From the NCBI GenBank assembly GCA_965216815.1, contig OZ244202.1, positions 1,233,762 through 1,297,761 on the forward strand: 64,000 nucleotides of DNA, given 5' to 3'. A program made the position numbers and the translations under genes. The stretch comes from Acidimicrobiales bacterium (lineage in GTDB: Bacteria; Actinomycetota; Acidimicrobiia; Acidimicrobiales; SHLQ01). Under the pieces are notes generated by a model. It had not been told where the DNA came from. It did not search any database and worked only from the letters and a program-made list of their open reading frames with translations. Of the stretch, positions 1-39,431 are shown one piece after another. How positions within the stretch are numbered: position 1 is the first letter of the stretch; every line of letters begins with the position of its first letter.

Positions 1-788
1 CGACGATGATCGTGGCCGAACGCGGGATGCCGTCGTTGTGGCTGATCGTCGCGACCGTCATCGGCGGCAGCCTCGCGGCGGGCGGAGCGAACGCGGTCAA
101 CATGTATGTCGATCGCGATATCGACGCGCTCATGGAGCGCACCCGCGATCGCCCGCTCGTGACCGGCGTGATCCGCCCGACAGAGGCGCTCGCGTTCGCC
201 GTGGGGCTCGAAGTCGTCGCGTTCGTCTGGCTCTGGGGCTTCGTCAACTTGCTCAGCGCGGTCCTGGCCGTGAGCGCCTGCCTCTTCTATGTGTTCGTCT
301 ACAGCCTGTGGCTGAAGCGGAGGTCGGCGAGCAACATCGTCATCGGCGGTGCCGCCGGGGCTGTGCCGGTTCTCGTGGGCTGGGCCGCGGTCACCAACAG
401 CCTCGACTGGGCACCCGTCGTGCTCTTCGCCATCATCTTCTATTGGACGCCACCACACTTCTGGGCACTCGCGATCCGCTACAAGGACGACTACACAGCG
501 GCGTCGGTTCCGATGCTTCCGTCGGTTCGATCGATGCGTACCGTTGCCCAACGCATCCTTATCTACACGCTGCTCCTCTGGGCGCTCACGCTGGTGTTCG
601 CGGCGGTCGGCGAGATGGGTGCGATATACCTCGTCGCTGCGCTCGCACTGGGAGCCGTCTTCGCCGCCATGGCCATCGGGCTCTTGCGTTCGCCGACCTC
701 GAAGCGGGCCATGCAGCTGTTCCACTATTCGATCACTTACGTGACCTTGTTGTTCGGTGCGATGGCGCTCGACCAGCTAGTGCAGTGA
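1..788 (+). CDS. ctaB: protoheme IX farnesyltransferase (heme O synthase), 5' end outside window
   Basis: ORF 6..788. It carries UbiA-family signatures 'NMYVDRDIDALMERTRDRPL' and 'YWTPPHFWALAIRY' and is polytopic. The usual N-terminal ~40 aa are absent, so the gene probably starts upstream of position 1. Confidence 0.9.
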   Translation, partial: TMIVAERGMPSLWLIVATVIGGSLAAGGANAVNMYVDRDIDALMERTRDRPLVTGVIRPTEALAFAVGLEVVAFVWLWGFVNLLSAVLAVSACLFYVFVYSLWLKRRSASNIVIGGAAGAVPVLVGWAAVTNSLDWAPVVLFAIIFYWTPPHFWALAIRYKDDYTAASVPMLPSVRSMRTVAQRILIYTLLLWALTLVFAAVGEMGAIYLVAALALGAVFAAMAIGLLRSPTSKRAMQLFHYSITYVTLLFGAMALDQLVQ

Positions 789-933
789 CCGAGTCGGCCC
801 TGGCTCCCGTCCGGTTCGTTGCGCCGAACCGATCATGTGTAATGTCCCGCCCCGATGCGCGGATTCGGTCGCACGGCCGCGTAGCATCGCTTGTCGCCCG
901 GTACACGAACGCGTCCCGATCCAGAAGCTGCCC

Positions 934-2544
934 ATGACCCTCACAGAAGCCCCACCGGCCACCGTGGAACCCAGCGTGACCCCCGAGCCCGAGTCGGGCC
1001 TCTATGGCGTGGTCACGAGTACCGACCACAAGACGGTCGGCAAGCTCTACGTGGGCTTCGCACTCCTGTTCGGACTCGTGGCACTGGTCGTGGGTGCACT
1101 CGCTGCTATCGAGGGTGTCGACCCCGACTCGTTCGACATCTTCTCCGATGCCGATGGATTGGCGCAGGCGACGAGCCTGCTCTGGACCGTCGGGTTCTTC
1201 GGGTCGGCGATCCCGCTCCTCATCGGGTTGGCCGCTGTCGTGGTTCCACTCCAGGTCGGGTCGCCGGCGGTCGCCTTTCCCCGTGCGCTCGCAGCTTCGT
1301 TTTGGACCTGGCTCATCGGAGCGTTCCTCCTCGGTCTCGGATACGCCCTCGACGGTGGTCTCGGCGCCAGCGCCGCCGGAAGCGACTCCGAGGCGGTAGC
1401 CCTGAGCGTCGCAGCGATGGGCATGGTCGCGGTAGCGCTCATGCTCGCTCTCGTCTGCCTGGTCACGACCGTCATCGCCCTGCGTCCCGAAGGCATGTCG
1501 CTCTCCCAGGTCCCGTTCTTCGGGTGGTCGATGCTCGTGGCCGGGGCTTTCTGGCTCGCCTCCATGCCCGTGCTGGTCGCCAACGTGCTCGTCGCCTACG
1601 TCGACCTGCGCGGTCGCCCGGCGATCTTCACCGGATCAGAGGACTCGATCGCGGGGCAGTTCGATTGGTTCTTCACGCCGCCCCAAGCACTGCTCGTGCT
1701 GGTCCCCGTGCTCGGCATCGTCGCCGACATCGTCCAAGCGTCGATCCGTGGCCGGCAACGCAACTACGGTCTCGTCCTCGGCGGCATCGCGGTGTTCGGG
1801 CTCCTCTCCTACGCCGCCGACATGCAGACCGCCTTCGACTACAGCATCAGCCCGGTCACAAGCGAGTTCCTCTACCTGGCGGGCGGCATCGCCATCATCC
1901 TGCCGTTCCTAGTCGTCCTCGGCGGCATCCTCGACTCGCTGATCGTGGGTCGTCTGCGAATCGGGACTCCCTCGCCGTCACTTCTCGCGGCGCTCATTAC
2001 GTTCGACCTAGTCGCAGCTGCTGTGGTCACAGCTGTCCTCCGATCGATCGAGCCGCTCGATCTCGTCGGAACGCCGGCCGATAGAGGTGTAGCAGTGCTC
2101 GCTCTCACGGGTGCACTTTGCGGTGCCCTCGCCGGATGGATCCACTGGGGTCCCAAGTTCACCGGCCGGCCCAGACCGAGCGGACTCGCGGTCGGTGCCA
2201 CCGCCGGATTGCTCGTCGGTGGGGCCGTGGCCGGCCTCGCCTTGTTCGTCGCCGGCTTCTTCGACCCGGGCGAGAGCGTGCTCGACACGCTCTCGGCGCT
2301 CACGGCCGTCGGCCTTCTCATCGCAGCGGTTGCCGTCGGCGGAGCGCTCGTAGCCCTGGTCGTGCAGATCGGCGGTCCTGAATCCGATGACGATGGTGAA
2401 TCCGAAGTCGACGTCGACGACGGTGGCGTCACCCTCGAATGGGCGGCTCCGACCCCGCCGCCGCTTGGCAACTTCGCCGAGCCCGTCGGGCCGGTGGCGA
2501 GTCCCCAGCCGCTTCTCGACACCGACGACGGAGACGAGTCATGA
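934..2544 (+). CDS. heme-copper oxidase subunit I-like membrane protein lacking all canonical heme/CuB histidine ligands
   Basis: Start taken at the ATG at 934 inside ORF 835..2544. It aligns end to end with the window's own CtaD ('TDHKTVGKLY', 'VPLQVGSPAVAFPR', 'RPEGMSLSQVPFFGW', C-terminal 'TLEWAAPTPPPLGNF'). The ligand motifs are replaced: TMHG->LLWTVG, GHPEVY->TPPQAL, AHHMF->AADMQ, AHFHY->AVLAL. Only 2 His remain in the protein. Confidence 0.75.
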   Translation: MTLTEAPPATVEPSVTPEPESGLYGVVTSTDHKTVGKLYVGFALLFGLVALVVGALAAIEGVDPDSFDIFSDADGLAQATSLLWTVGFFGSAIPLLIGLAAVVVPLQVGSPAVAFPRALAASFWTWLIGAFLLGLGYALDGGLGASAAGSDSEAVALSVAAMGMVAVALMLALVCLVTTVIALRPEGMSLSQVPFFGWSMLVAGAFWLASMPVLVANVLVAYVDLRGRPAIFTGSEDSIAGQFDWFFTPPQALLVLVPVLGIVADIVQASIRGRQRNYGLVLGGIAVFGLLSYAADMQTAFDYSISPVTSEFLYLAGGIAIILPFLVVLGGILDSLIVGRLRIGTPSPSLLAALITFDLVAAAVVTAVLRSIEPLDLVGTPADRGVAVLALTGALCGALAGWIHWGPKFTGRPRPSGLAVGATAGLLVGGAVAGLALFVAGFFDPGESVLDTLSALTAVGLLIAAVAVGGALVALVVQIGGPESDDDGESEVDVDDGGVTLEWAAPTPPPLGNFAEPVGPVASPQPLLDTDDGDES

Positions 2545-3125
2545 ACGCGCATGCGCTTCCAGCGGCGCCGCCGACCCGGCCGCGCACCCTGTTCATCGCG
2601 ACCACCTTCGCGTCGGTCGGTGTAGTGATGTTCTTCGCTGCGCTCTTCGGCATCTACATCGGTGAGCGATCCAATGTCGTCGGTGCCGGCGGCGACTGGT
2701 TTCCCGAAGGGTCGATCTCGCTCGTGCCGGGCGGGATGATGATGATCACGATGCTCATGTCGGCGGTCACCGTTCAGTGGGCCGTCTACGCGATAGCGCG
2801 CGACGATCGCACCCACACCTACCTCTCGCTCGGCTTGACCGCCCTGCTCGGCGCGGCGGTCATCAACCAGATGGTGTTTGTCTGGATCAACTTCGCCGAG
2901 CCGATCGACGCATCGATCGCAGCGTTGCTGTTCTACGTGATCACCGGAGCGTTCATAGCGCTGCTGGTCGTAGCACTCGTGTTCGTATTTCTTGTCGCCG
3001 TCCGCACGATGGCGGGCAACTACGGCCATCGGAACTCCGATGGCATCACTGCGGCGGCGCTGTTCTGGTACGTGACGGTCGCGGTCTACGCGGCGGTCTG
3101 GTATGCGATCTTCGTGACGAAGTAG
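2541..3125 (+). CDS. heme-copper oxidase subunit III-like membrane protein
   Basis: The ATG at 2541 overlaps the upstream stop (ATGA). This is the tail of ORF 2439..3125. It is a 5-TM protein that aligns with CtaE in this window ('LFIATTFASVGVVMFFAALFGIY', C-terminal 'ALFWYVTVAVYAAVWYAIFV' against 'GLYWHFVDVVWIFIFTVVYL'). Confidence 0.75.
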   Translation: MNAHALPAAPPTRPRTLFIATTFASVGVVMFFAALFGIYIGERSNVVGAGGDWFPEGSISLVPGGMMMITMLMSAVTVQWAVYAIARDDRTHTYLSLGLTALLGAAVINQMVFVWINFAEPIDASIAALLFYVITGAFIALLVVALVFVFLVAVRTMAGNYGHRNSDGITAAALFWYVTVAVYAAVWYAIFVTK

Positions 3126-3130
3126 GCACC

Positions 3131-3964
3131 ATGCTCACAACAGGGTTCAAACTCTTCTATGGAATCGCCATCGCAGCGCTGGTGTCGGCTGCCGTGCTCG
3201 GATACACGAGCGGCGGCAACCACCTAGGTCCACTGACGCTCGGCTACAAGGGCAGCGTCGGGTTCCACTTCGGCTACGTGGTGCTCGTCACCGCAGGTTT
3301 TGCCAGCGGCGCCGTCGGCCTGGTGCTCCAAGCGTTCCGCGATGGCGATGCCGAGGCGGTCGCTCAGGTGGTCGGCACCGAAGTCGCGCCTGTCGGCCAG
3401 ACACCGCTGAACGGCTCGTTCTGGCCGCTGGGTGCAGGCTTCGCCGTAGCGGTCACCCTGGTCGGGCTCATACTGCACCCGGCGATAGCGGTCACCGGCC
3501 TGGCGCTTCTGGCAGTCGTGATCTTCGAATGGACCATGTCGGCGTGGTCAGATCGCGCAACCGGCGATCCGGTTGCCAACCGCGAACTGCGCGACCGCAT
3601 CATGCGCCCCATCGAGATACCGGTTCTCGCATTCGGCGGTGTCGCTGTCATCGTGCTCGCCGTGTCCCGTATCCTCCTGACCTCGAGCAAGCTAGGGGCG
3701 GTCATCGTCGCCACCGTCGTGGCCGCACTCGTGTTCGGCGTTGCCGTGCTGTTGTCCGCTCGCCCCAAGATCAACAAGAACGTCGCGACCGCTGCCGTGT
3801 TGATCGGAGCGGTGGGGGTCCTCACCGCCGGCATCGTTTCGGCCGTAAACGGTGAGCGCGACTTCGAACACCACGGTGAGGAGAGCCATGGCGCCGAGGC
3901 GTCGGTGGACGAAGGCGCCGATGGCGACGAGAGCGGAACCGAAGGTGAGGCGAGCGATGAATAG
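3131..3964 (+). CDS. polytopic membrane protein whose N-terminal half resembles actinobacterial oxidase subunit IV (CtaF-like); acidic C-terminal tail
   Basis: ATG at 3131 within ORF 2777..3964, 5 nt after the upstream stop. 'NGSFWPLGAGFAV...LAVVIFEWTMSAW' recalls the CtaF 'SWWP...FEYY' pattern. About 6 hydrophobic segments. The tail is 'EHHGEESHGAEASVDEGADGDESGTEGEASDE'. Confidence 0.6.
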   Translation: MLTTGFKLFYGIAIAALVSAAVLGYTSGGNHLGPLTLGYKGSVGFHFGYVVLVTAGFASGAVGLVLQAFRDGDAEAVAQVVGTEVAPVGQTPLNGSFWPLGAGFAVAVTLVGLILHPAIAVTGLALLAVVIFEWTMSAWSDRATGDPVANRELRDRIMRPIEIPVLAFGGVAVIVLAVSRILLTSSKLGAVIVATVVAALVFGVAVLLSARPKINKNVATAAVLIGAVGVLTAGIVSAVNGERDFEHHGEESHGAEASVDEGADGDESGTEGEASDE

Positions 3965-5183
3965 ACGCTCCGTTCTGCGCATCGCGCTCGTCGCAACCAT
4001 CGGCCTTCTGCTGGCTGGTTGTGCGAGCGACGCCCCGCTCGACTCACTCGAGCCGAGGGGCGAGAACGCGCGCAACATCGACAACCTCCTGAACCCGGTT
4101 TTTTGGATCGCGGTCGTCGTCTTCGTACTGGTGCTCGGTGCCACGCTGTACATGTCGTGGAAGTTCCGCGTAAAGGAATACGCCGACGACGACTTCCCGA
4201 AGCCCGTCGCCGGCAACACGCTGCTCGAAATCGGGTGGACGCTCGTGCCCGCTGTGATTCTCTGTGTCATCGCGGTGCCCAGCATGGCGCTGCTGTTCGA
4301 CCTCAACGACAACGACAACCTCGACACCGCGTACGAGGACCTCGATGTCGTGGTGGTCGGCCAACAGTGGTGGTGGGAGTTTCGCTACTACTTCGACGGC
4401 TTCGACCCCTCCATCGACGACCTCGACACTCCGGCCGATGTCGTGACGGCCAACCAGATGTACATCCCCGCCGACCAGGACGTGCCGCTGTTCGTGACCT
4501 CTCGCGATGTCGTTCACAGCTTCTCGGTGCCCGTGCTCAACGGAACCAAGGACGCGGTTCCCAACCTCTACAGCCCTTGGAAGATCCAAGCCGACGAGCC
4601 GGGCGTCTACTTCGGCACGTGTCGTGAATTCTGCGGTCTCAGCCACGCCCTCATGCGGACTCAAGTGGTCGCCGTCGAACAGGGCGAGTTCGATCGCTGG
4701 GCGGCCCAAAAACGCGAACCCTACGACGGTCCCGGCGACGTGATGTCCTACGTCGACTCTGCCAAGGCCGCGGCGGACGGCGACGGCGAGGCCGTCGAAC
4801 CGACGACTGCCGAGGGCCGCGGCGCGGCCGTTTTTCGCTCTCAGTGCTCGTCATGTCACCTAATCGACGGCGTGAACGACGACATCTACGACGGTGCCGA
4901 GCTCGTATCGGGCGCGGCGCCCGACCTCACACACTTTGCGTCGCGCAGTTCCTATGCCGGCTCGCTGTTCGAGCTGTACGACCGAGACGGCGGGGTCGAC
5001 CGGAATCAGCTCGAGGCATGGATCCGTAATCCGGCGGCCGAAAAGCCTGCCGACGCAGAAGGCTTGCGCGGCATGCCCGACCTCGGGTTGAGCGAGGATC
5101 AGATCGACGACGTCGTCGCGTTCTTGCTCACCGCGGGCGAGGAACCGAGCGACTTCATCAAGGCAGAGACGGTGGTCGACTGA
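3957..5183 (+). CDS. ctaC: cytochrome c oxidase subunit II with fused C-terminal cytochrome c domain (caa3 type)
   Basis: ATG at 3957 within ORF 3852..5183. Lipoprotein-like signal 'LLLAGCAS'. CuA site 'HSFSVP...CREFCGLSHALM'. C-terminal heme c motif 'CSSCH' with 'RGMPD'. Confidence 0.9.
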   Translation: MNRRSVLRIALVATIGLLLAGCASDAPLDSLEPRGENARNIDNLLNPVFWIAVVVFVLVLGATLYMSWKFRVKEYADDDFPKPVAGNTLLEIGWTLVPAVILCVIAVPSMALLFDLNDNDNLDTAYEDLDVVVVGQQWWWEFRYYFDGFDPSIDDLDTPADVVTANQMYIPADQDVPLFVTSRDVVHSFSVPVLNGTKDAVPNLYSPWKIQADEPGVYFGTCREFCGLSHALMRTQVVAVEQGEFDRWAAQKREPYDGPGDVMSYVDSAKAAADGDGEAVEPTTAEGRGAAVFRSQCSSCHLIDGVNDDIYDGAELVSGAAPDLTHFASRSSYAGSLFELYDRDGGVDRNQLEAWIRNPAAEKPADAEGLRGMPDLGLSEDQIDDVVAFLLTAGEEPSDFIKAETVVD

Positions 5184-5208
5184 TGACCCCGACCCGGAGC
5201 GTGCGCTG

Positions 5209-7236
5209 ATGGCAATCACCGAAGAGCCACCGAAGGAACTCACGACGGGTGAGGATGTGGTCGAGACGATCGAGCGGCCGCTCGGGGTTCTCACCCGCCC
5301 GCAGGGCAGCACAGGGTGGAAGAGCTGGCTGACCACGGTCGACCACAAGCGCATCGGCATCCTCTATGGCGCTGCAGCCCTGGTGTTCTTCGTACTCGGT
5401 GGCCTAGAAGCTCTCGCGATGCGCGTTCAGCTCGCTGCGCCCAACGGCACGTTCCTGTCGGCCGACACCTACAACCAGATGTTCACCATGCACGGCGTCA
5501 CGATGATCTTCCTCGTCGCCATGCCCCTCGCTGCGGCCTTCGCCAACTATCTGCTGCCGCTCCAGATCGGCGCTCGAGACGTAGCGTTCCCGCGGCTCAA
5601 CGCGCTGAGTTTCTGGGTGTTTCTCGCCGGTGGCCTGTTCCTCGTGTCGTCGCAGTTCATAGGCGGATGGTTCACGAACGCGCCCGACTGCGGCTGGTTC
5701 TGTTACCAGCCAAACGGCGGAGTGCTGTTCTCGCCGAGCCGCGGTGTCGACTTCTACGCCGTAGGCATTCAGATCACGGGCATCGCATCGCTGGTGTCGG
5801 CGATCAACCTCATCGTCACGGTGCTCAACATGCGCACACGCGGCATGTCCTTGTTCCGCATGCCTGTGCTGAGCTGGATGCTGCTGGTCACCCAGTTCCT
5901 ACTCCTCTTCGCCATCCCGGTCATCACCGTCGGCCTCTTCCTCGTGATGTTCTCCCGGCTCTGGGGTGCGCAGTTCTTCAACGTGGCCGCAGGGGCCGAG
6001 CCGCTGTTGTGGCAACACCTGTTCTGGATATTCGGCCACCCCGAGGTGTACATCCTCGTGCTGCCGGCATTCGGGATCGTGTCCGAGGTCATTCCCGTGT
6101 TCAGCCGCAAACCGATCTTCGGCTATTCGTTCATGGTCTTCTCGGGCATCGCTATTGGGTTCATGGGCTGGGGCGTGTGGGCCCACCACATGTTCGCTTC
6201 GGGCCTCGGCCCGATCTCGGTCGCAGCGTTCTCGCTGTCGACGATGTTCATCGCCGTGCCCACGGGCGTGAAGATCCTCAACTGGTTGGCGACGATGTGG
6301 GGCGGCAAGCTCAAGTTCGACACGCCGATGCTGTTCGCGGTCGCGGTCATGTCGATGTTCACGATCGGCGGACTGTCAGGTGTGACCCACGCTCTCGCCG
6401 CACCCGACACCCAGCAGACCGACACCTACTACATCGTTGCGCACTTCCACTACGTCGTGTTCGGAGGCATCATCAACGGTCTCTTCGCCGGGTTCTACTT
6501 CTGGTGGCCGAAGGCGTTTGGCTACAAGCTCGACGAAACCTGGGGCAAGGCGAACTTCTGGCTGATGACAATCGGTATGACGCTTACGTTCGGACCGATG
6601 CACGTACTCGGACTCCAGGGCATGAGTCGGCGCTACTACACCTACTCCGACGGGTACGGGTTTGCGTTCTGGAACTTGATCGTCACTATCGGTGCGTTCG
6701 TCATCGCCGTCGGTGTGCTCGCCTTCGTCATCAACATCCTCCTGTCGTGGCGCAGGGCGCAGTCGCTTCCCCCGGTCGGCCCCGATCCTTGGGACGCACG
6801 GACGATCGAATGGATGATCCCGAGCCCCACGCCCGAGCACAACTACGACGAGCTGATCGATGTGCACGGCGTCGACGAGTTCTGGCACCGCAAGTACTCC
6901 TATGACGACGACGGAAACGTGACGCGTATCGCGACTGGCGACGAGATCGCCCAGACGGGCGACGCGACCGATGTTCACCTGCCGTCTCCGTCGTATTGGC
7001 CGATCGTGTTGGCCGCCGGCTTGCCGATCATCGGCTATGGCCTCATCTACAACCTCTGGCTCTGCGTGCTCGGCGGCCTGCTGGTCGTCGCCTCGATCTA
7101 CGGCTGGGTGATGGAGCCCACAGACGATCCCGACGCTGTGCACGACGACCACGACGATGATGACGATGACGACACCGGCGATGCCGACGAACTCGCGTCG
7201 GTGGCAGATTCCGAGGAGGGCAGCGACGATGGCTGA
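5209..7236 (+). CDS. ctaD: cytochrome c oxidase subunit I
   Basis: ORF 5209..7236. All ligand motifs are present ('FTMHG', 'WIFGHPEVY', 'WAHHMF', 'VAHFHYV'). Long Asp-rich C-terminal tail. Confidence 0.95.
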   Translation: MAITEEPPKELTTGEDVVETIERPLGVLTRPQGSTGWKSWLTTVDHKRIGILYGAAALVFFVLGGLEALAMRVQLAAPNGTFLSADTYNQMFTMHGVTMIFLVAMPLAAAFANYLLPLQIGARDVAFPRLNALSFWVFLAGGLFLVSSQFIGGWFTNAPDCGWFCYQPNGGVLFSPSRGVDFYAVGIQITGIASLVSAINLIVTVLNMRTRGMSLFRMPVLSWMLLVTQFLLLFAIPVITVGLFLVMFSRLWGAQFFNVAAGAEPLLWQHLFWIFGHPEVYILVLPAFGIVSEVIPVFSRKPIFGYSFMVFSGIAIGFMGWGVWAHHMFASGLGPISVAAFSLSTMFIAVPTGVKILNWLATMWGGKLKFDTPMLFAVAVMSMFTIGGLSGVTHALAAPDTQQTDTYYIVAHFHYVVFGGIINGLFAGFYFWWPKAFGYKLDETWGKANFWLMTIGMTLTFGPMHVLGLQGMSRRYYTYSDGYGFAFWNLIVTIGAFVIAVGVLAFVINILLSWRRAQSLPPVGPDPWDARTIEWMIPSPTPEHNYDELIDVHGVDEFWHRKYSYDDDGNVTRIATGDEIAQTGDATDVHLPSPSYWPIVLAAGLPIIGYGLIYNLWLCVLGGLLVVASIYGWVMEPTDDPDAVHDDHDDDDDDDTGDADELASVADSEEGSDDG

Positions 7237-7825
7237 AGCCGCGCTCGACACCCACGCACATCCCGAGACCAACACCGGGATGTCGCACAACAAGCTCGCG
7301 ATGTGGGTGTTCCTGGCCTCCGAGTGCCTCCTCTTCGGTGGGCTCATCTCGACATACATCCTCTACAGGCACGACACCAACGGTGGGCCGACGGCGGGCG
7401 ACGTGTTCGACATCCCCTTCACGTCGGTCAGCTCCTTCGTGTTGCTCCTCAGTTCGCTCACGATGGTGCTCGCGTTGTCGGCGCTTCAGCGAGGCGACGA
7501 GTCGCGCAACCGCCTTTGGCTGATCACGACCGCGCTCCTCGGAGCGGTCTTCATCGGAGGCCAGGTCTACGAGTTCACCGGCTTCCTCAGGGAGGGTCTC
7601 GGGTTCACCACGAGTCCGTTCAGCTCGTCGTTCTTCACGCTCACCGGGTTCCACGGCGTCCACGTGAGCATCGGCATCGTGATGCTGATGTCGCTCGTGG
7701 TTGTATCGCTGAAGGGAGACCTTCCGAAGGAGCGTGCCGAGACCGTCGAGATCGTCGGCTTGTACTGGCACTTCGTCGACGTGGTGTGGATCTTCATCTT
7801 CACCGTCGTCTACCTGACCGTGTGA
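7229..7825 (+). CDS. ctaE: cytochrome c oxidase subunit III
   Basis: ATG at 7229 overlaps the ctaD stop by 8 nt (ORF 7157..7825). Motifs 'FFTLTGFHGVHVSIG' and 'GLYWHFVDVVWIF'. Confidence 0.9.
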   Translation: MAEAALDTHAHPETNTGMSHNKLAMWVFLASECLLFGGLISTYILYRHDTNGGPTAGDVFDIPFTSVSSFVLLLSSLTMVLALSALQRGDESRNRLWLITTALLGAVFIGGQVYEFTGFLREGLGFTTSPFSSSFFTLTGFHGVHVSIGIVMLMSLVVVSLKGDLPKERAETVEIVGLYWHFVDVVWIFIFTVVYLTV

Positions 7826-7835
7826 GGATCGAACG

Positions 7836-8162
7836 ATGACCCAGACCGTTTCGCCCGACACCACCGAAGATCACGAGCACGACCATCCATCCGACCGCAC
7901 CTACGTCGGTATCGCGATCGTGCTGGCGATAATCACCGCGGCCGAGGTGCTCACCTACTTCGTCGACATCGGCGACGCCCTCATACCGGCCCTGATGATC
8001 ATGATGGTCGCCAAGTTCTTCCTCGTGGCAGCGTTCTTCATGCATCTCAAGTTCGACATCCCGATGTTCACTCGTCTGTTCGTCGGAGGCATAGCTCTGG
8101 CGACGATCGTGTACGTGGTGATGCTTACCGCCTTTCAGTTCTGGGACACTTTCGACTTCTGA
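7836..8162 (+). CDS. ctaF: cytochrome c oxidase subunit IV (small Bacillus/caa3-type subunit)
   Basis: ORF 7836..8162. A 3-TM, 108-aa protein with 'KFFLVAAFFMHLKFD', sitting directly after ctaE. Confidence 0.8.
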   Translation: MTQTVSPDTTEDHEHDHPSDRTYVGIAIVLAIITAAEVLTYFVDIGDALIPALMIMMVAKFFLVAAFFMHLKFDIPMFTRLFVGGIALATIVYVVMLTAFQFWDTFDF

Positions 8163-8210
8163 CGTCTCTGGGTCGGCACATCACATGCCGGTGCCCACAA
8201 AAGAGGACCG

Positions 8211-9140
8211 ATGCTCGCCGTTTCGATAGCCGGTTTCGAAGCACACCCCGAGATCTGGCTGATGGTCGCTGCAATCGCCGGTTTGGGCATCTACGCCGTA
8301 CGCGTCATCGGACCGAAGGCGGTTCCCGAAGGCGAGCCGGTGGTCACGGGCCGCCAGAAGCTCTACTTCTGGGCCGGGCTGTTGCTGTTGTGGATCGCTG
8401 CTGACTATCCGGTGCACGAGATCGGCGAACAGCAGCTCTATTCGGTGCACATGCTGCAACATCTCGCGTTCACGTTCTTCGTACCCCCGCTGTTCCTCAT
8501 GGCGACCCCCCGCTGGTTGGTCGATTTGGTGATGACTCCGGGGCGGGTCGTCGACCGGTGGTTTCGCAGGCTGGCCTTGCCCGTCGTCGCGGGCGTGTTG
8601 TTCAACTTCGTTCAGGCTCTCACCCACTGGGAGAAGGTGGTCGAGCTGTCGGTCGAGAACGGGCTGTTCCATTACCTCGTTCACCTACTCGTGTTCACGA
8701 CCGCGCTGTTGATGTGGGTGCCGGTCGTCGGACCATTCCGCGAGCTGCAGCTCAGCCCGTTCGGCAAGTGCATCTACCTGTTTCTCATGTCGGTGATTCC
8801 GACGATCCCAGCGGCGTGGCTCACGTTCGCAGAGAACCCGGTCTATGACGTGTACGACCATCCTGACCGCCTGTGGGGTGTTTCGGTCGCTGACGACCAA
8901 CAGGCGGCCGGCATGGTCATGAAGATCCTCGGCGGGTTCTACCTCTGGGCGGTCATCGCGGGGATTTTCTTCCGCTGGTCGGTCGACCAGAGAAAGCAGG
9001 ACGTGATCGATCGTGAGCGCTACCGCGAGGAGAGGGAGCGAACACTGGACCGACCCGACGAGAGCGACGATGCCCTCACCTTCGCCGACATCGAGGCGCG
9101 ATTCGAAGACGTGCCACCCCCCGCCGACCGGGTTCCCTGA
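8211..9140 (+). CDS. ctaG: cytochrome c oxidase assembly factor CtaG (caa3_CtaG family)
   Basis: ORF 8211..9140. Polytopic, with 'YSVHMLQHLAFTFFVPPLFLMATP', located downstream of ctaCDEF. Confidence 0.85.
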   Translation: MLAVSIAGFEAHPEIWLMVAAIAGLGIYAVRVIGPKAVPEGEPVVTGRQKLYFWAGLLLLWIAADYPVHEIGEQQLYSVHMLQHLAFTFFVPPLFLMATPRWLVDLVMTPGRVVDRWFRRLALPVVAGVLFNFVQALTHWEKVVELSVENGLFHYLVHLLVFTTALLMWVPVVGPFRELQLSPFGKCIYLFLMSVIPTIPAAWLTFAENPVYDVYDHPDRLWGVSVADDQQAAGMVMKILGGFYLWAVIAGIFFRWSVDQRKQDVIDRERYREERERTLDRPDESDDALTFADIEARFEDVPPPADRVP

Positions 9141-9150
9141 CGCGACCCTT

Positions 9151-9216
9151 CGCGACCCCGGTGTCAGACCAAAGTTTCACTTTCGCGACCCCGGTGTCAG
9201 ACCAAAGTTTCACTTT
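9151..9216. repeat. two perfect tandem copies of a 33-bp unit 'CGCGACCCCGGTGTCAGACCAAAGTTTCACTTT'
   Basis: Direct reading gives 9151-9183 identical to 9184-9216, with a partial copy 'cgcgaccc' at 9141-9148. It lies between convergent ctaG and serS. The second copy contains the last codons and stop of serS. Confidence 0.9.
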
Positions 9217-10465
9217 CGGGCGGGTCGAGGCGGTCGAACGCGCAGTACGGCTGAAGCACGTCCGGGACCTGTAGTGACCCGTCGGGTTGTTGGTAGTGCT
9301 CGAATAGGAACACGAGCATGCGCGCCACCGGCACCCCGGTGCCGTTGAGTGTGTGCACGAACGAGGATCCGCCGGCGGTCTTGACCCGCGTATCGAGCCT
9401 TCGCGCCGAGTAGTCGAGGTAGTTGGAGCACGACGTGATCTCGCGGTAGCGACCTTCGGACGGTAGCCACACCTCGCAGTCGAACTTCTTCGCTGCCGCG
9501 GCCCCTAGATCGCCGGCAGCGACGTTGATGACCCGGTAGGGCAGCCGGAGGTCGTCGAGGATTTCGCGTTCGATCGTCAGTAGGCGGTCGAGCTCGTCCC
9601 ACGATGAGTCAGGATCGGTGAACGAGAACATCTCGACTTTGTCGAACTGATGCACCCGGAAGATGCCCCTCGTGTCCTTGCCGTAGGTTCCGGCTTCGCG
9701 CCGAAAGCAGGTCGAGAACCCGGCATAGCGCGCCGGCAGCTCGTCGGCATCGAGGCGCTCCCCACGGTGAAGGCCCGACAGCGGGACCTCGGCGGTGCCG
9801 ACGAGAAACAAGTCGTCCTCGACCGTCTCGTACACCTGGTTGCGGTCGGTCGGGAAGAACCCGGCCTCGACCATCATCTCCTCGCGCACCAGCACGGGCG
9901 GCACGACGGGTTCGAAACCGTGGCCGATCACCTTGTCGAGCGTCCACTGCACGAGAGCGAACTCGAGTTGCACAGCACCGCCACGCAGGTAGGCGAAGCG
10001 GCTGCCGCTGTTCCTCGCGCCTCGCTCTGAGTCGACGAGACCCATCGCCTCGCCGAACTCTGCATGATCCATCGCAGGAGCGTCGATCGTGTCGCCGACG
10101 GTTTCGAGGAGCTCGAAGTCTTCTTCACCCCCGGACGGAACCGAGGGATGTGCCGGGTTCGGCACGTCGAGCACGAGCCTATCCAGCTCATCGCGCACGG
10201 CTTCGAAAGCCGCCTCGGCCTCGTTGAGTCGCTCCTTCAGCATCCCGGCTGCTTCGATCTTCGCCGGTCGGTCGTCAGGGTCGGATCGACCGATCTCCTT
10301 CGAAGCAGCGTTGGACTCCGCGCGCAGCGACTCGACCGCAGTCTGTCGCTCTCGTCGATCGGCATCGAGGGCTAGCAGTCGGTCGAGCATCGCCTCGTCG
10401 GCGCCCTTGCGGACCGCGCCGTCTCGGTACGCTGGGTCGTCACGAAGTGCTCGAAGGTCGATCAC
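9197..10465 (-). CDS. serS: seryl-tRNA synthetase
   Basis: ORF 9197..10465. N-terminal coiled-coil arm plus class II core ('FRREAG', 'RVHQFDKVE', 'GTGVPVARML'). The C-terminal 'ESETLV*' is encoded inside the 33-bp repeat. Confidence 0.95.
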   Translation of the reverse strand: MIDLRALRDDPAYRDGAVRKGADEAMLDRLLALDADRRERQTAVESLRAESNAASKEIGRSDPDDRPAKIEAAGMLKERLNEAEAAFEAVRDELDRLVLDVPNPAHPSVPSGGEEDFELLETVGDTIDAPAMDHAEFGEAMGLVDSERGARNSGSRFAYLRGGAVQLEFALVQWTLDKVIGHGFEPVVPPVLVREEMMVEAGFFPTDRNQVYETVEDDLFLVGTAEVPLSGLHRGERLDADELPARYAGFSTCFRREAGTYGKDTRGIFRVHQFDKVEMFSFTDPDSSWDELDRLLTIEREILDDLRLPYRVINVAAGDLGAAAAKKFDCEVWLPSEGRYREITSCSNYLDYSARRLDTRVKTAGGSSFVHTLNGTGVPVARMLVFLFEHYQQPDGSLQVPDVLQPYCAFDRLDPPESETLV

Positions 10466-10546: not shown

Positions 10547-10870
10547 TCACGCGAGCGCCCGACCCAACGCGGCGGCGGCGATGCACAGTGCAAGCGACAC
10601 GGACACATAGAGAGCAGCGGCCGATGTAGAGCGACGCGATCGGAGCTGGTAGCCGAGCAGCGAGAGCGCCGAATACGACGTGAGCGCGCCGAGAGCGCCG
10701 TACGCAACGGGCTCGGCGACCGAGGCTGTCGTGGAGTCGAGAAGGCCGACGACGAACGATCCGGCGATATTTACGGCGAGCAAGCCGACCCCGTTTGGTA
10801 GTCGGGCAGCGGCCTGCCACCGGACGAGCGCCCCGAGCGCGCCGGCGACGATAACGAGAGCCCCGGTCAC
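10547..10870 (-). CDS. crcB: fluoride channel CrcB/FEX family protein (second of pair)
   Basis: GTG at 10870 overlaps the upstream crcB stop (GTGA). This is the tail of ORF 10547..11371. A 4-TM, ~107-aa protein with 'LLAVNIAGSFVVGLL'. Confidence 0.8.
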   Translation of the reverse strand: MTGALVIVAGALGALVRWQAAARLPNGVGLLAVNIAGSFVVGLLDSTTASVAEPVAYGALGALTSYSALSLLGYQLRSRRSTSAAALYVSVSLALCIAAAALGRALA

Positions 10871-11211
10871 AGCACGACCCCGGCGCGTCGGATCGCCTCG
10901 ATCGCCAGCACTCCGGCCACCGCGGACACGAACGCGTATAGCGCTGCCTCGGTGACCATCCCCATGTGCACTAGCTCGGTGACCTCGAGCGCGAACGTAG
11001 ACACCGTCGTGAGGCCGCCGCAGAACCCGATCCCGAACGCGTCTCGGTGCCGTCGGTGGTCGAAGCGCGGTGCGACCACCACTAGCAGCGCCGTGCCGAC
11101 GACGTTGACACCGAGCGTCGGCCACGGGACCGAGGTCAGATCGATGTCGGAGAGGATCAGCCATCGGGTGAAGGCGCCGAGCGCACCTCCGAACGCGATC
11201 CACCGGTACAT
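10867..11211 (-). CDS. crcB: fluoride channel CrcB family protein (first of pair)
   Basis: ATG at 11211 within ORF 10867..11316. Motifs 'GGALGAFTRW', 'TLGVNVVGTALL', 'GFCGGLTTVSTF'. Confidence 0.85.
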   Translation of the reverse strand: MYRWIAFGGALGAFTRWLILSDIDLTSVPWPTLGVNVVGTALLVVVAPRFDHRRHRDAFGIGFCGGLTTVSTFALEVTELVHMGMVTEAALYAFVSAVAGVLAIEAIRRAGVVL

Positions 11212-11229
11212 CGGAGGCGAGCGTACCCT

Positions 11230-11871
11230 GTGGCAATGGACGTGGCCGCCGCACGCGAGCGCTTCGAAACGGAGGGCCTTTCGATCGCCGATGTCTCTCC
11301 TCACCCGATCGACCAATTCGACGCTTGGTTTTCAGCGGCCGAGGAGGTCGGCTACTTCGAGCCCGAGGCAATGATCCTTTCGACGGTCGATGCCGATGGC
11401 GTCGTCGATGCCCGCACCGTGCTGTGCCGCGGAACCGGCCCCGACGGTTTCCGCTTCTTCACCAACTATCTGAGCGCGAAGTCGATCGCGTTGGATCACT
11501 CGGACTCGGTCGCCCTGCTGTTCACCTGGGTTGAGCTACGCCGACAGATCCGCGTTGTGGGGAACGCGGCGAGGCTCGACGACGACGCCAACGACGCCTA
11601 CTTCGCATCGAGGCCACGCGGCAGCCAGATCGGCGCGTGGGCCTCACCCCAGAGCGAGGTCATCGCCGACCGAAAGGCTCTCGACAACGCCTACCGTGAG
11701 CTCGAAGAGCGATTCGCCGGCGGGTCGGTGCCCCGGCCCCCTCATTGGGGCGGCTACCTCGTGAGGCCGCGAGCGATCGAGTTCTGGCAGGGTCGCCCCA
11801 ACCGGCTCCACGATCGGGTTCGGTACCGGCTCGTCGACGACTCTTGGATCATCGAACGACTGGCGCCCTGA
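11230..11871 (+). CDS. pdxH: pyridoxamine 5'-phosphate oxidase
   Basis: ORF 11230..11871. Motifs 'EPEAMILSTVDADG', 'RQIRVVGNA', 'YFASRPRGSQIGAWASPQS', 'IEFWQGRPNRLHDR'. Confidence 0.9.
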   Translation: MAMDVAAARERFETEGLSIADVSPHPIDQFDAWFSAAEEVGYFEPEAMILSTVDADGVVDARTVLCRGTGPDGFRFFTNYLSAKSIALDHSDSVALLFTWVELRRQIRVVGNAARLDDDANDAYFASRPRGSQIGAWASPQSEVIADRKALDNAYRELEERFAGGSVPRPPHWGGYLVRPRAIEFWQGRPNRLHDRVRYRLVDDSWIIERLAP

Positions 11872-12555: not shown

Positions 12556-13680
12556 CTAGGACGCCGGCAGTTGTTCGGACTTAGCCGCCTCGGTTGGCCG
12601 GTTCCGGCGGAGGATCGAGGCAAGAACGAGCACCAACACCGCCACCACCGCGATCTCGAGGACCACCGCCCAACGAAGTGGGTCGGTGATCCAGTGCGCG
12701 ATTCGTTCCGGGAGCCCGGCGATGAGACGCAGGGCGGGGAGAACGATCAGCTCACCCTGGTATCCGAGCACCTCGATCGCGGCGACCCCACCTACGAACC
12801 CTCGGCTGTACAACCTGAATCGTCCGGGTTCGATCGATGGCTTCATGCCCCACAGGACGAGGCCCACGATCGCCAAGACGAGCACGAGCCCGATGTGGGT
12901 GGCACCGACATCGCTGATCCAGCCGTTGAGGTGCGCCTGGAGCTCGTCGAGACGATCCTGCACGGGGTTCGTAGTCACCCCGACCGGGTCGCGGAAAACC
13001 TGAATCTCATACCAGCCGTAGCTGACGAGATAGAGGCCGGCGACAACCAGTAGGCCACCTGAGACCCGGTTGACGTACGGCAGGAACGACCGCATCTTCT
13101 GGGCGACCGACTCGCGCGCCATCGAGAGCGAGAGGGTCAGGAAGAGCACCACTGCGCCCATGCCGGCGGCGTAGGCGAGAAAGACAGCGATGCCTTCGAA
13201 GAAGCCCTCGTCGGTGAACGAGGTCGTGATCGTGCTGAGGAAGAGCGGTGCCGTGCATCCGAACGACACGACGGCGAAGCTCACGCCGAAGAGAAACACT
13301 GACCCGAGGTTTCGCGTCTGTCCACCCTTGTTCAGGCGGGGGAGGTTGAGCCTTGGTTCGAATCCTGCCAGCATCGCGATTCCGAGCGGAACGAGCAGCA
13401 CCCCGGTGACGAGGGTCACCCACGGGAGCCGCTCCTCGATCGCCCCGGAGGTGATGATGTTGCGGGTGATGAGTCCGATGATGCCGAACACGACGACGAA
13501 GCTCGCGGTGATGACGAGACCGACGACGAGGCCTCGAAGGGTCGATGTGCGCGAGTCGCCGTCTCCGCTGTCGTCGCTGATGAAGTAGGCCAGGTAGGTA
13601 GGGAGCATCGCGAAGCCGCACGGGTTGAACGCTGCGACGAGCCCGAGCGAGAAGGGATATGCCAGTTCGACGTCGATCAC
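12556..13680 (-). CDS. ccdA: cytochrome c biogenesis thiol-disulfide transporter CcdA/DsbD family, with extra C-terminal TM region
   Basis: ORF 12556..13680. Motifs 'GLVAAFNPCGFAMLPTYLAYF' and 'VSFGCTAPLF'. Confidence 0.85.
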   Translation of the reverse strand: MIDVELAYPFSLGLVAAFNPCGFAMLPTYLAYFISDDSGDGDSRTSTLRGLVVGLVITASFVVVFGIIGLITRNIITSGAIEERLPWVTLVTGVLLVPLGIAMLAGFEPRLNLPRLNKGGQTRNLGSVFLFGVSFAVVSFGCTAPLFLSTITTSFTDEGFFEGIAVFLAYAAGMGAVVLFLTLSLSMARESVAQKMRSFLPYVNRVSGGLLVVAGLYLVSYGWYEIQVFRDPVGVTTNPVQDRLDELQAHLNGWISDVGATHIGLVLVLAIVGLVLWGMKPSIEPGRFRLYSRGFVGGVAAIEVLGYQGELIVLPALRLIAGLPERIAHWITDPLRWAVVLEIAVVAVLVLVLASILRRNRPTEAAKSEQLPAS

Positions 13681-14264
13681 AGTTCGAACACCTCGTCGAT
13701 CCTCTCGCGAAGAGCGTCGGCCGTCAGGAGCCCGGCATGACTGTCGACGAGCTGACCGTCGGCGCCGAGAAACAGCGTCGTCGGCATCGCCAGACCCTCG
13801 ATCTCGCGGAAGAACCAGCCGTCGGGATCACGTCCGAGCATGTAGGTCACGCCGGTGGTTTCGGCGAGCTCGGCGGCTGCTTCGGCGCGATCGGAGGTGT
13901 TCATGCCCACGAACGTCACGACATCGCCGACGTCGTTGTGCACCTCTTCGAAGTCGGGCATCTCCGCAATGCACGCCTGACAGGTCGAGGCCCAGAAGTT
14001 GACGATGGTCGGGGTACCCATGAGTGCCGCCAATGATGTGGAACCACCGTCGAACGTCTCGAACTCGGTAGTCAGGAAATCCGGAGTCGTGTCGTCGATC
14101 GGGGGAAGCTCGGTGGGCTCGCCAAGCTCGGCGACATCAGCGCCATCGCTGGCCGCCGAGTCGCCGTCGTCATCGTCGGTCAGCACAACGAACGCGACGA
14201 TGAGCGCGAGTAAAGCGATCGTGAACCCCGCGGTGAGCAGGGTGCGTTGGCGCCGTGTGTACAT
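13677..14264 (-). CDS. TlpA/ResA-family thioredoxin-like thiol:disulfide oxidoreductase, membrane anchored
   Basis: ORF 13677..14264. N-terminal TM segment, 'IVNFWASTCQACIAEMP' (CxxC). It overlaps the ccdA start by 4 nt. Confidence 0.85.
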   Translation of the reverse strand: MYTRRQRTLLTAGFTIALLALIVAFVVLTDDDDGDSAASDGADVAELGEPTELPPIDDTTPDFLTTEFETFDGGSTSLAALMGTPTIVNFWASTCQACIAEMPDFEEVHNDVGDVVTFVGMNTSDRAEAAAELAETTGVTYMLGRDPDGWFFREIEGLAMPTTLFLGADGQLVDSHAGLLTADALRERIDEVFEL

Positions 14265-38025: not shown

Positions 38026-38141
38026 GGGTTTACTCCTTCTTCGGGGGATGGCCCGAGAGTGCGGGATCGGATGTGAAGAAGTGATGTGGAAGCCGTGTGG
38101 ATCCATGTGTTCCCCGGACGGCGGACCACCGAGAACCACTA

Positions 38142-38159
38142 TGTGAATTCGTGCACGAA
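38142..38159 (+). promoter_or_regulatory. Rex-operator-like inverted repeat upstream of rex
   Basis: 'TGTGAATTCGTGCACGAA' compared with the Rex box TTGTGAA-N4-TTCACAA. It lies 20 nt before the rex GTG. A 'TACCGT' -10-like hexamer sits at 38166-38171. Confidence 0.45.
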
Positions 38160-38178
38160 CCTCGTTACCGTTGGGTTC

Positions 38179-38823
38179 GTGGGCGACGAACACGAGTCGA
38201 TTCCTGAGGTGACGGTTACGCGGCTTCCCGTGTACCGCCGTTGTCTGCTCGAGCTGAAGAGCGACGGGGTCGCCACCGTGTCCTCCGAGCGCCTCGCTTC
38301 GATGGCCGGGGTCAACGCAGCGAAGGTTCGCAAAGACCTCTCGTATCTCGGCTCCTACGGCACGCGCGGCGTCGGCTATGACGTCGATTTCCTGTTGTTC
38401 GAGGTCAGTAGGGAGCTCGGGCTGACCACCGACCGGCCCGTCGTCATCGTCGGGGCCGGCAACCTCGGGTCGGCCCTCGCGCGGTATTCGGGTTTCAACG
38501 ATCGCGGCTTCCCGGTGGAAGCGCTTCTCGACAACGACCCGGAGCGAATCGGACAACGCATCGGTTCGCTCGAAATCAACGATCTCGACGACATCGAAGC
38601 CGTCGTCGACCGCCACGACATTGCGATCGGGGTCATCGCCACGCCACCCGAGTCCGCCCAGGACGTGGCCGATCTTCTCGTCGGTGCTGGTGTTCGGTCC
38701 ATCCTCAATTTCGCACCGCGGCTGCTCGATCTCGACGAATCGGTGTCGGTGCGCCGCGTCGACCTCGCGACCGAGCTTCAGGTGCTCAGCTTCTACCAGC
38801 AGCACGGCGAGCCGGTGTCGTGA
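38179..38823 (+). CDS. rex: redox-sensing transcriptional repressor Rex
   Basis: GTG at 38179 within ORF 38086..38823. Motifs 'IPEVTVTRLPVYRR', 'KVRKDLSYLGSYGTRGVGYDV', Rossmann 'VVIVGAGNLGSAL', 'ILNFAP'. Confidence 0.85.
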   Translation: MGDEHESIPEVTVTRLPVYRRCLLELKSDGVATVSSERLASMAGVNAAKVRKDLSYLGSYGTRGVGYDVDFLLFEVSRELGLTTDRPVVIVGAGNLGSALARYSGFNDRGFPVEALLDNDPERIGQRIGSLEINDLDDIEAVVDRHDIAIGVIATPPESAQDVADLLVGAGVRSILNFAPRLLDLDESVSVRRVDLATELQVLSFYQQHGEPVS

Positions 38824-39431
38824 GTCGACCGGCCTTCCTCGTCGGGCTGCGGCTCGAGGGGCGAGCCGTGCTGGTTGTAGGCGCCGGTCGCGTGGCGCTC
38901 CGCAAGACGAACGAGCTGATCGACGCCGGAGCAGTGATCACGGTCGTCGCACCCCGCGTCGATCCCAGCTTCGCCGACCTCGACGTGGTCGTCGAGCGAC
39001 GGCGATACGAACGCGGCGAGGCGGCGGACTACTGGTTCGTCGTCACAGCTACCGATGACCCATCGGTCAACGAAGCCGTACATGCGGATGGCGTCGCCGC
39101 CTCGGTGTTCGTGAACGCAGCCGACGATCCTGCGAACTGCACCGCGATCCTGCCCGCCCGCCTTCGGCAGGGCGACCTGACGGTTGCGGTCTCGACGAAC
39201 GGCCGATCACCGGCGTTCGCGTCGTGGCTCAAAGGTCGTATCGGAGATCAGCTCGGACCGGAATATCATGTGCTGTTGGAAGTGTTGGCCGACGAGCGCG
39301 ACGCGATGATTTCTGCCGGCGAGTTCACAGAGGGACGGAGTTGGCAGGTCGCGCTCGAATCGGGAATTGTTGATCTGGTTCGGTCTGGTCGCCTCGACGA
39401 GGCCAGGGAGCTGTTGCGCGCGTGTCTGTAG
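38820..39431 (+). CDS. precorrin-2 dehydrogenase / sirohydrochlorin ferrochelatase (siroheme synthase N-terminal-domain type)
   Basis: ORF 38820..39431. GTG overlaps the rex stop. 'LEGRAVLVVGAGRVALRK' NAD-binding fold, 'AVSTNGRSPAFASWLK'. Confidence 0.8.
   Translation: MSRPAFLVGLRLEGRAVLVVGAGRVALRKTNELIDAGAVITVVAPRVDPSFADLDVVVERRRYERGEAADYWFVVTATDDPSVNEAVHADGVAASVFVNAADDPANCTAILPARLRQGDLTVAVSTNGRSPAFASWLKGRIGDQLGPEYHVLLEVLADERDAMISAGEFTEGRSWQVALESGIVDLVRSGRLDEARELLRACL

Follow-up and report, generated by a model that had tools for sequence, protein, structure and literature searches.

What does the core of a heme-copper oxidase do once it has lost the residues that hold its hemes and its copper? 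The question is raised by three genes in a 64,000-nucleotide (nt) stretch of DNA from an Acidimicrobiales bacterium (GenBank assembly GCA_965216815.1, contig OZ244202.1), which we refer to as the window. On the plus strand, between ctaB and the ctaCDEF genes of a caa3-type oxidase, positions 934-3964 encode a paralog of oxidase subunit I (934-2544; 536 amino acids [aa], 12 helices), a divergent paralog of subunit III (2541-3125; 194 aa, 5 helices), and a third membrane protein, X (3131-3964; 277 aa). We call the first two paralog I and paralog III, and the three genes together the module. An earlier note, made from the sequence alone, had correctly drawn both this span and the gene boundaries within it, and had remarked that all three frames are open. 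Together, the three proteins would form a paralogous copy of an A-type heme-copper oxidase core that is non-catalytic and lacks cofactors.

An oxidase core without cofactor sites

Paralog I is recognizably an oxidase subunit I. It matched the Pfam family COX1 along profile positions 2-404 of 436 (expect value [E] 1.4e-31, 110 bits, cutoff 34.8), and it aligned with the functional CtaD of the window at 27% identity over 451 columns (BLASTP E 4e-28), which bears out the full-length homology claimed in the earlier note. Its scores were far under the NCBIfam equivalog cutoffs (CtaD_CoxA, 153.6 vs. 670.75; cyt_aa3_Actin, 118.1 vs. 880). The AlphaFold2 model has 12 long helices, a predicted local distance difference test score (pLDDT) of 87, and a predicted template modeling score of 0.91. 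Foldseek superimposed it on A-type COX1 structures at template modeling scores of 0.75-0.82, with mycobacterial CtaD as the best match.

The positions that hold cofactors in this fold are occupied by other residues. In BLAST and MAFFT alignments of the window copy, none of the six histidine ligand positions carries the canonical residue, and neither do the positions of the cross-linked tyrosine and of E286. Only two histidines remain in the protein: one belongs to the non-ligand motif TDHK, and the other aligns with the phenylalanine just before the WPK of CtaD. The loss of the six histidines and the tyrosine, and the two stray histidines, had been read from the window alone by the earlier note; when 81 orthologs of paralog I were aligned with 56 genuine CtaDs encoded in the same loci, the loss was confirmed at the level of the family. 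The heme a ligand H102 is replaced by Tyr in 32, Ser in 15, and Phe in 7 of the 81 orthologs and is His in 6, and the second heme a ligand, H421, is Asn in 37 and His in 14. At H419, which binds heme a3, the orthologs have Val, Met, or Gln (His in 2/81). The CuB ligands are never His in the 81 sequences: H284 has become Ala, Gln, Asn, Gly, or Pro; H333 is Gln in 60; and H334 is Ser, Pro, Gly, or other residues. The proton pathways fared no better. D132, at the entry of the D channel, is Ser or Ala; N139, within it, is Ala (75/81); and E286, at its end, is Gln (55/81). In the K channel, T359 is Val and K362 is Tyr, Val, Leu, or Phe. Neither the Asp of the Mg site nor the Arg pair has survived.

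What selection has kept is the frame around these sites. The structural residues R137, W280, and P285 are retained in 80-81 of the 81 orthologs, and conservation is strongest in canonical motifs that bind nothing (TDHK, PLQVG..AFPR, R..GM.L...P...W, W...QP.VY, and TLEW...SPPP.GNF). Paralog I also carries an acidic insert ahead of the TLEW motif. Glutamine is the favored residue at the former H333 and E286 (Q298 and Q251 in the window copy), and this conserved, hydrogen-bonding pair may fill the former active-site cavity. We considered a different conserved set of ligands and rejected it. The replacements at the ligand sites vary among orthologs, and apart from the start Met there is no invariant His, Cys, or Met column in the alignments of paralog I or X; there is therefore no conserved site at which a metal or heme could bind instead. 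As judged from these alignments, the module has no conserved heme or CuB site and no D or K pathway. It is incapable of O2 reduction, of electron transfer through the canonical sites, and of proton conduction through the D or K channel.

Paralog III is a more distant relative of its functional counterpart. It matched Pfam COX3 at 30.3 bits (cutoff 23.8; profile positions 86-252), and its best NCBIfam model was aa3_CtaE_Actin (E 1e-12), at 48.6 bits under a cutoff of 190, whereas the real CtaE of the window is CyoC/QoxC-like. The two align colinearly from end to end at about 22% identity. The canonical CtaE motifs are gone from paralog III, which has conserved residues of its own.

The third protein, X, had been described as CtaF-like in its first half. 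This holds at the level of the family, but the window copy alone had no Pfam or NCBIfam match (Pfam at E up to 1). Searched against the PDB, the profile of the X family found mycobacterial CtaF ("cytochrome c oxidase polypeptide 4") as its top match, over nearly the whole chain (E 0.035), followed by helices 1-2 of seven-helix subunit III, matched through an SxWP motif. The Pfam family PF12270 (Cyt_c_ox_IV) gave weak matches in 25 of 47 X-family members and one above its cutoff (P0227, 31.1 bits vs. 26.9), and hhalign aligned the X family with a CtaF alignment at a probability of 62% (E 7.7e-5). The AlphaFold2 model of X had a pLDDT of 78; its top Foldseek match, a weak one, was a chain of the Corynebacterium glutamicum supercomplex (7q21_F, probability 0.85). 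Helices 3-4 bear the SxWP...EW motif of subunit III helices 1-2. From this family-level evidence, the four N-terminal helices of X (residues 1-140, 3131-3550) are likely homologous to CtaF. Across the module, profile searches assigned paralog I to COX1, paralog III to COX3, and the X family to Cyt_c_ox_IV, and assigned none of them to a transporter family.

X is nonetheless more than a subunit IV. Residues 141-243 (3551-3859) comprise an Arg-rich linker, three further transmembrane helices, and a GER motif. The linker is near-invariant (DRATGDPxANRxLRxRxMxPIEIP), and the helices were modeled at residues 147-184, 187-210, and 216-240; neither the X-family profile searched against the PDB nor Foldseek returned a homolog for these three. 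The protein ends in a His/Glu/Asp-rich tail that is predicted to be extramembrane (3860-3964, stop codon included). Because of the homology to subunit III and CtaF, together with the positive-inside rule, we infer that the linker is cytoplasmic and that the tail faces outward. Histidine makes up 12.8% of X-family tails vs. 0.9% of the body of the protein, and the median is 4 His in 27 residues; at least two His are present in 163 of 175 tails, which share the motif GER(D/E)F(E/H)HH..H. A tail of this composition may bind metal.

Conservation, selection, and a sister clade that keeps heme ligands

To judge whether these genes are a peculiarity of one genome, we turned to their relatives. A protein search returned about 50 His-poor homologs of paralog I at 31-44% identity. 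A wide alignment of paralog I had no block conserved enough for a genome scan, and the scan of species-representative genomes was built on nine closer sequences. It confirmed 295 relatives, and the top 80 were retained. With the exception of one isolate, Aquihabitans sp. G128, these 80 are metagenome-assembled genomes. Most are named Acidimicrobiales, Ca. Microthrix, Microthrixaceae, Iamiaceae, Aquihabitans, Ca. Poriferisocius, or Sva0996, and the remainder are named only to phylum level or more vaguely. The X family is larger, with 1270 cluster representatives at 50% identity (E up to 0.001).

As far as the contigs reach, the order ctaB-paralog I-paralog III-X-ctaC-ctaD-ctaE-ctaF-ctaG was found in all 84 loci, with ctaA divergent and upstream. 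Copies truncated by a contig end aside, all are complete open reading frames (ORFs) of conserved length (82 of paralog I, 82 of paralog III, and 79 of X). The median ratio of non-synonymous to synonymous substitution rates (dN/dS) was 0.19 for paralog I, 0.16 for paralog III, and 0.14 for X, alongside 0.19 for ctaC, 0.22 for ctaE, 0.12 for ctaD, and 0.11 for ctaB in the flanks. These Nei-Gojobori estimates were taken over 345 genome pairs of moderate divergence, which are not independent of one another, and in such GC-rich genes dS is probably too low, although the comparison between genes holds regardless. Paralog I does diverge faster than its functional counterpart, with an identity to the window copy of 33-43% compared to 62-77% for CtaD. 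Still, the intact ORFs and the dN/dS of 0.14-0.19 mean that these genes are not pseudogenes. The earlier note had argued against pseudogene decay from the window alone and had suggested a survey of related genomes; both the absence of disruption and the expected gene order emerged from that survey.

One homolog, P0050, sits in the same gene context and retains the heme histidines. Used as the query of a metagenome scan, P0050 led to 21 sequences of a sister clade in which the genes follow the same order. The subunit I paralog of this clade, which we call I', keeps the heme a ligands H102 (19/19) and H421 (20/20) and, in most copies, H419 (15/20). E286 is present as Glu or Asp in 21/21 and Y288 is kept in 19/21. 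The CuB positions, by contrast, have been replaced almost uniformly (H284 by Arg, 21/21; H333 by Ala, 20/21; H334 by Gly, 19/21), as have those of the channels (D132 by Arg, 19/19; K362 by Leu or Val).

The X ortholog of the sister clade, X', is longer than X, with a cupredoxin domain at its C terminus (Pfam Cupredoxin_1, 40.9 bits vs. a cutoff of 27). This domain stands at the position of the X tail, as seen in locus L089 (I' at 3812-5446, X' at 6031-7041 of that locus) and in P0194. Further sister-clade loci of this type are L090, L092, L096, L098, L101, L103, and L106. All 11 complete copies of X' hold a type-1 copper ligand set, (F/Y)HN ... CDFHxxM. The best PDB sequence matches of the domain were auracyanin, proteins with blue-copper domains, amicyanin, and plastocyanin. 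It also aligned with the CuA domain of CtaC (hhalign probability 71%), with the ligands in register and the membrane helices unaligned. The domain could thus descend from subunit II or from blue-copper proteins, and the sequence search favors the auracyanin/amicyanin types. Helices 6-7 of X followed by an outward-facing cupredoxin would, in the predicted topology, reproduce the arrangement of subunit II, so that X' resembles subunit II as well as subunit IV. In L089 (7043-7625), L090, and L098, X' and ctaC are separated by a gene for a TlpA/ResA-like CxxC thioredoxin; at the start used, the L089 gene had no Pfam match at E 0.01. Elsewhere, a gene of this kind follows X' (L103) or lies downstream of ctaG (L106).

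Between X' and the window copy of X, the family offers several stages. Cupredoxins with a copper site are present in the X homologs P0194, P0227, P0238, P0285, and P0315. Many others have a beta domain devoid of ligands (e.g., L028, L036, P0244, and P0250-P0253), which looks like a cupredoxin kept after loss of its metal site; the X orthologs of L028 and L036, for instance, are 357 aa long and end in a beta-rich domain of about 110 aa with no Cys/His copper ligands. In X of Aquihabitans/Iamiaceae, only the stretch "...PLPxPSQTVIRVGN" is left. The window X and all 78 of its close orthologs have no cupredoxin domain, and in the window copy only the His/acid tail stands in its place.

Given the sister clade and this range of X homologs, redox centers were lost stepwise and repeatedly. 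The loss of CuB and the channels came first, followed by that of the blue copper and the hemes, and the window module is what was left, with every redox center gone, of an older module that had hemes and blue copper but no CuB. The module is a lineage-wide feature with an evolutionary intermediate rather than a single-genome peculiarity. The sister-clade I'/X' could, in turn, be a distinct and still redox-active enzyme derived from heme-copper oxidases.

Where the module came from is a separate matter. The paralog I profile gave resident CtaDs 272-312 bits and the CtaD of Mycobacterium smegmatis 307, and its best PDB matches were mycobacterial CtaD (312 bits) and Bacillus QoxB (282 bits). The resident CtaD, for its part, scored Bacillus and Mycobacterium about equally. 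Paralog III and X are closer to the actinobacterial aa3 architecture than to the resident, Bacillus-like genes. These values are compatible both with a tandem duplicate of the resident ctaD and with a relic of an actinobacterial aa3 oxidase. The idea of a duplicated I/III/IV module in the earlier note therefore stands as regards a scaffold kept without heme a/a3 or CuB binding, but the similar profile scores do not establish the duplication itself.

Possible roles of the module

We tentatively read the module as a non-catalytic membrane scaffold, a stable structural partner within a caa3 oxidase supercomplex, and give this reading slightly less than an even chance. The module has outlived every cofactor and, in about 100 loci recruited via paralog I or I', was not once found without ctaCDEF, so its role should be tied to the caa3 oxidase and call for no more than a protein scaffold. 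Its genes are also closely knit with those of the oxidase. The paralog I stop and the paralog III start share an ATGA, 5 nt separate paralog III from X, and the ATG of ctaC (3957) precedes the X stop (3962-3964), giving an overlap of 8 nt; both the ATGA coupling and the overlap had been spotted previously. GC content at third codon positions is 0.80, 0.85, and 0.78 in paralog I, paralog III, and X, respectively, and 0.83-0.89 in their ctaB-ctaG neighbors. We suggest that the three genes share a transcript with ctaC and the other caa3 genes and are translationally coupled to ctaC, and that the proteins would associate physically with the caa3 oxidase as a membrane scaffold. The functional oxidase may have grown dependent on the module while its older form was still redox-active, and the redox centers would have been lost afterwards.

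Several points weigh against this reading. The co-occurrence count is limited to loci that were all recruited via paralog I or I'. Rate covariation (mirror tree) was non-discriminating, at 0.87-0.96 for all cta genes with similar residuals for all pairs. Moreover, 24 helices are a costly scaffold for a purely structural role, and the conserved, His-rich external tail of X fits metal handling or assembly better than passive scaffolding. A related scenario, which we regard as possible if rather doubtful, assigns the sister-lineage module a redox role, either as a relay wired to the caa3 oxidase or as a second catalytic half; the window core would then be the empty, obligatory structural half of the supercomplex. 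Under this scenario, and going by the retained ligands, I' may hold a bis-His heme and a second heme that are fed or drained by the fused type-1 copper domain.

The tail of X is the natural starting point for the idea of an assembly platform, on which paralog I, paralog III, and X would transiently hold new CtaC at a subunit-II-like site and then pass it to the real CtaD, with the His/Glu/Asp-rich tail capturing or presenting copper for CuA loading. Such a platform would have a counterpart in paralogous scaffolds like NifEN for NifDK. The 8-nt overlap of X and ctaC fits such a hand-over, as do a tail that is His-rich (12.8%), predicted to lie outside the membrane, and placed where the sister lineage has its copper-binding cupredoxin, and the TlpA/ResA-like CxxC gene between X' and ctaC in three sister-clade loci. 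The module also lies between the heme a genes ctaA/ctaB and the structural genes, in an operon that includes CtaG. However, known oxidase assembly factors are small, whereas the module comprises an entire core of 24 helices. Neither Cys nor Met, which usually bind Cu(I), is conserved in the tail, and because acidic, low-complexity sequence also occurs on the tail of CtaD and inside paralog I, the acidity of the tail is not specific to X. On balance, we regard an assembly platform as the main rival to the structural partner, though a rather unlikely one.

Other readings cut the tie to the oxidase or deny the module a role. An old scaffold could have taken on an independent membrane function, as a proton/ion conduit or a transporter, and be merely co-transcribed with the caa3 genes. 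Purifying selection despite the lack of cofactor sites would agree with this, as would the few conserved polar residues (Gln at H333 in 60/81 and at E286 in 55/81, and an SR motif in helix 5 of X). Yet membrane helices with almost no conserved ionizable residues make a poor conduit, and the canonical proton-path positions (D132, N139, E286, T359, and K362) are all occupied by non-conducting residues, described as small or hydrophobic, which counts against the proton or ion conduit floated in the earlier note. The module was also never apart from ctaCDEF, and we think an independent function quite improbable. More improbable still, to the point that we give it very little credence, is a functionless relic or a core that is redox-active through non-canonical ligands. 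The faster divergence of paralog I could be taken as a sign of a relic, but all uncut copies are intact and conserved in position and length, with dN/dS below 0.2. Single histidines in some orthologs (H421 in 14/81, H102 in 6/81) could hint at cryptic redox activity, but the replacements at the ligand sites vary, with no alternative ligand set conserved.

Known systems offer partial parallels to the scaffold that we propose. The closest in architecture is the actinobacterial aa3 core of the Mycobacterium/Corynebacterium bcc-aa3 supercomplex, which likewise combines subunits I and III of 12 and 5 helices, respectively, with a separate subunit IV of 4 helices that supplies the SxWP hairpin. Unlike that core, the module lacks the ligands of heme a, heme a3, and CuB, the Mg site, the Arg pair, and the D and K channels; X has three extra helices and a tail; and no CuA-bearing subunit II belongs to the module. 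The resident caa3 oxidase (CtaC-CtaD-CtaE-CtaF, in a Bacillus/Thermus-like operon) shares its operon with the module and is always co-inherited with it. By contrast with the module, it has all ligands, subunit III helices 1-2 fused to CtaD, and a COX4_pro-type subunit IV, and its CtaD is no closer to paralog I than is that of M. smegmatis.

Loss of cofactors within a lasting complex has precedents. In cytochrome bd, CydB is a heme-less structural paralog of the catalytic CydA and, as shown structurally, its obligatory partner. CydB thus resembles the module as a duplicated oxidase subunit that lost its hemes and was kept as a structural partner; it differs in being a single subunit of an unrelated family, whereas the module is a whole multi-subunit core that we propose, rather than observe, to associate with the active enzyme. 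Subunit II of quinol oxidases (CyoA/QoxA) is a cupredoxin without CuA inside an active enzyme. There, too, the copper site was lost and the fold kept, as in the X homologs with ligand-less cupredoxins, but the quinol oxidase retains other cofactors, while the module has no redox site left. Membrane-anchored blue-copper carriers occur in several oxidase systems, including auracyanin in Chloroflexus, sulfocyanin SoxE in the SoxM complex of Sulfolobus, and halocyanin. Their likeness is to X' of the sister clade only, the window X being without a cupredoxin domain. To our knowledge, the fusion of such a copper domain with a membrane protein resembling CtaF has not been described. Neither ligand-less oxidase paralogs nor this operon turned up in full-text searches of the literature; PMC8756737, which was checked, proved unrelated.

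The surrounding cluster and its significance

The module is embedded in a tightly packed cta cluster on the plus strand (positions 1-9140). It opens with ctaB (heme O synthase; 6-788; Pfam UbiA, E 5e-63), the 5' end of which is cut by the window edge. Downstream of the module, ctaC (3957-5183) encodes a subunit II to which a cytochrome c domain is fused (Pfam COX2_TM, COX2, and Cytochrom_C), a make-up that marks the oxidase as caa3-type. The functional subunit I gene, ctaD (5209-7236), has all ligands and matched COX1 at 501 bits and Cyt_c_ox_IV at 34 bits, the latter at residues 592-636. That second match falls in a fused C-terminal helix pair (residues about 592-675; PSPSYWP...), the counterpart of helices 1-2 in seven-helix subunit III, which is followed by a strongly acidic tail (DAVHDDHDDDDDDD...). 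The functional 5-helix subunit III gene, ctaE, spans about 7229-7825 (COX3, 75 bits; NCBIfam CyoC/QoxC-like, 156-162 bits), with an ambiguous start, as another ATG lies at 7157. A Bacillus-type subunit IV gene, ctaF (7836-8162; COX4_pro, 37 bits), and the caa3 assembly factor gene ctaG (8211-9140; Caa3_CtaG, 141 bits) complete the cluster. A promoter/terminator scan of positions 1-9400 gave no signal above shuffled background.

Beyond the cluster, the wider neighborhood is heme- and respiration-related. About 3.4 kb downstream, on the minus strand, a CcdA-like protein (12556-13680; DsbD_TM; 374 aa, longer than the domain) adjoins a TlpA/ResA-like redoxin (13677-14264), and the pair is probably a thiol-reduction system for maturation of cytochrome c or CuA. 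Further on, a Rex-type redox-sensing regulator adjoins genes for heme biosynthesis, namely hemA, a fused cobA-hemD, and a probable hemL encoding a class-III aminotransferase (38086-38823, 39422-40672, 41569-43020, and 52569-53834 for this group). Just beyond serS, two ORFs overlap on the minus strand (10547-11371 and 10867-11316). The second is CrcB-like (fluoride channel), and there may be two tandem crcB genes here.

In the databases, paralog I goes by the name "cbb3-type cytochrome c oxidase subunit I" and X by "hypothetical protein." Because of such annotation, surveys of terminal oxidases based on gene counts will over-count oxidases in Acidimicrobiia, a class that is abundant in seawater, sponges, soils, and activated sludge and whose aerobic respiration has been annotated as an ordinary caa3 oxidase. 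A complete oxidase core that is under selection and yet cofactor-less brings non-catalytic scaffold roles into view, whether in supercomplex architecture, assembly, or copper handling. The CuB-less sister-clade variant, with its hemes and blue copper, could represent a new enzyme type that arose from heme-copper oxidases. Moreover, living lineages preserve steps in the loss of redox centers, which makes the question of what such a core does experimentally approachable. If the scenario of a redox-active sister module and an empty structural half in the window is true, the module would be a respiratory-chain pseudoenzyme the size of an entire complex, and intermediates of its evolution would persist in living lineages.

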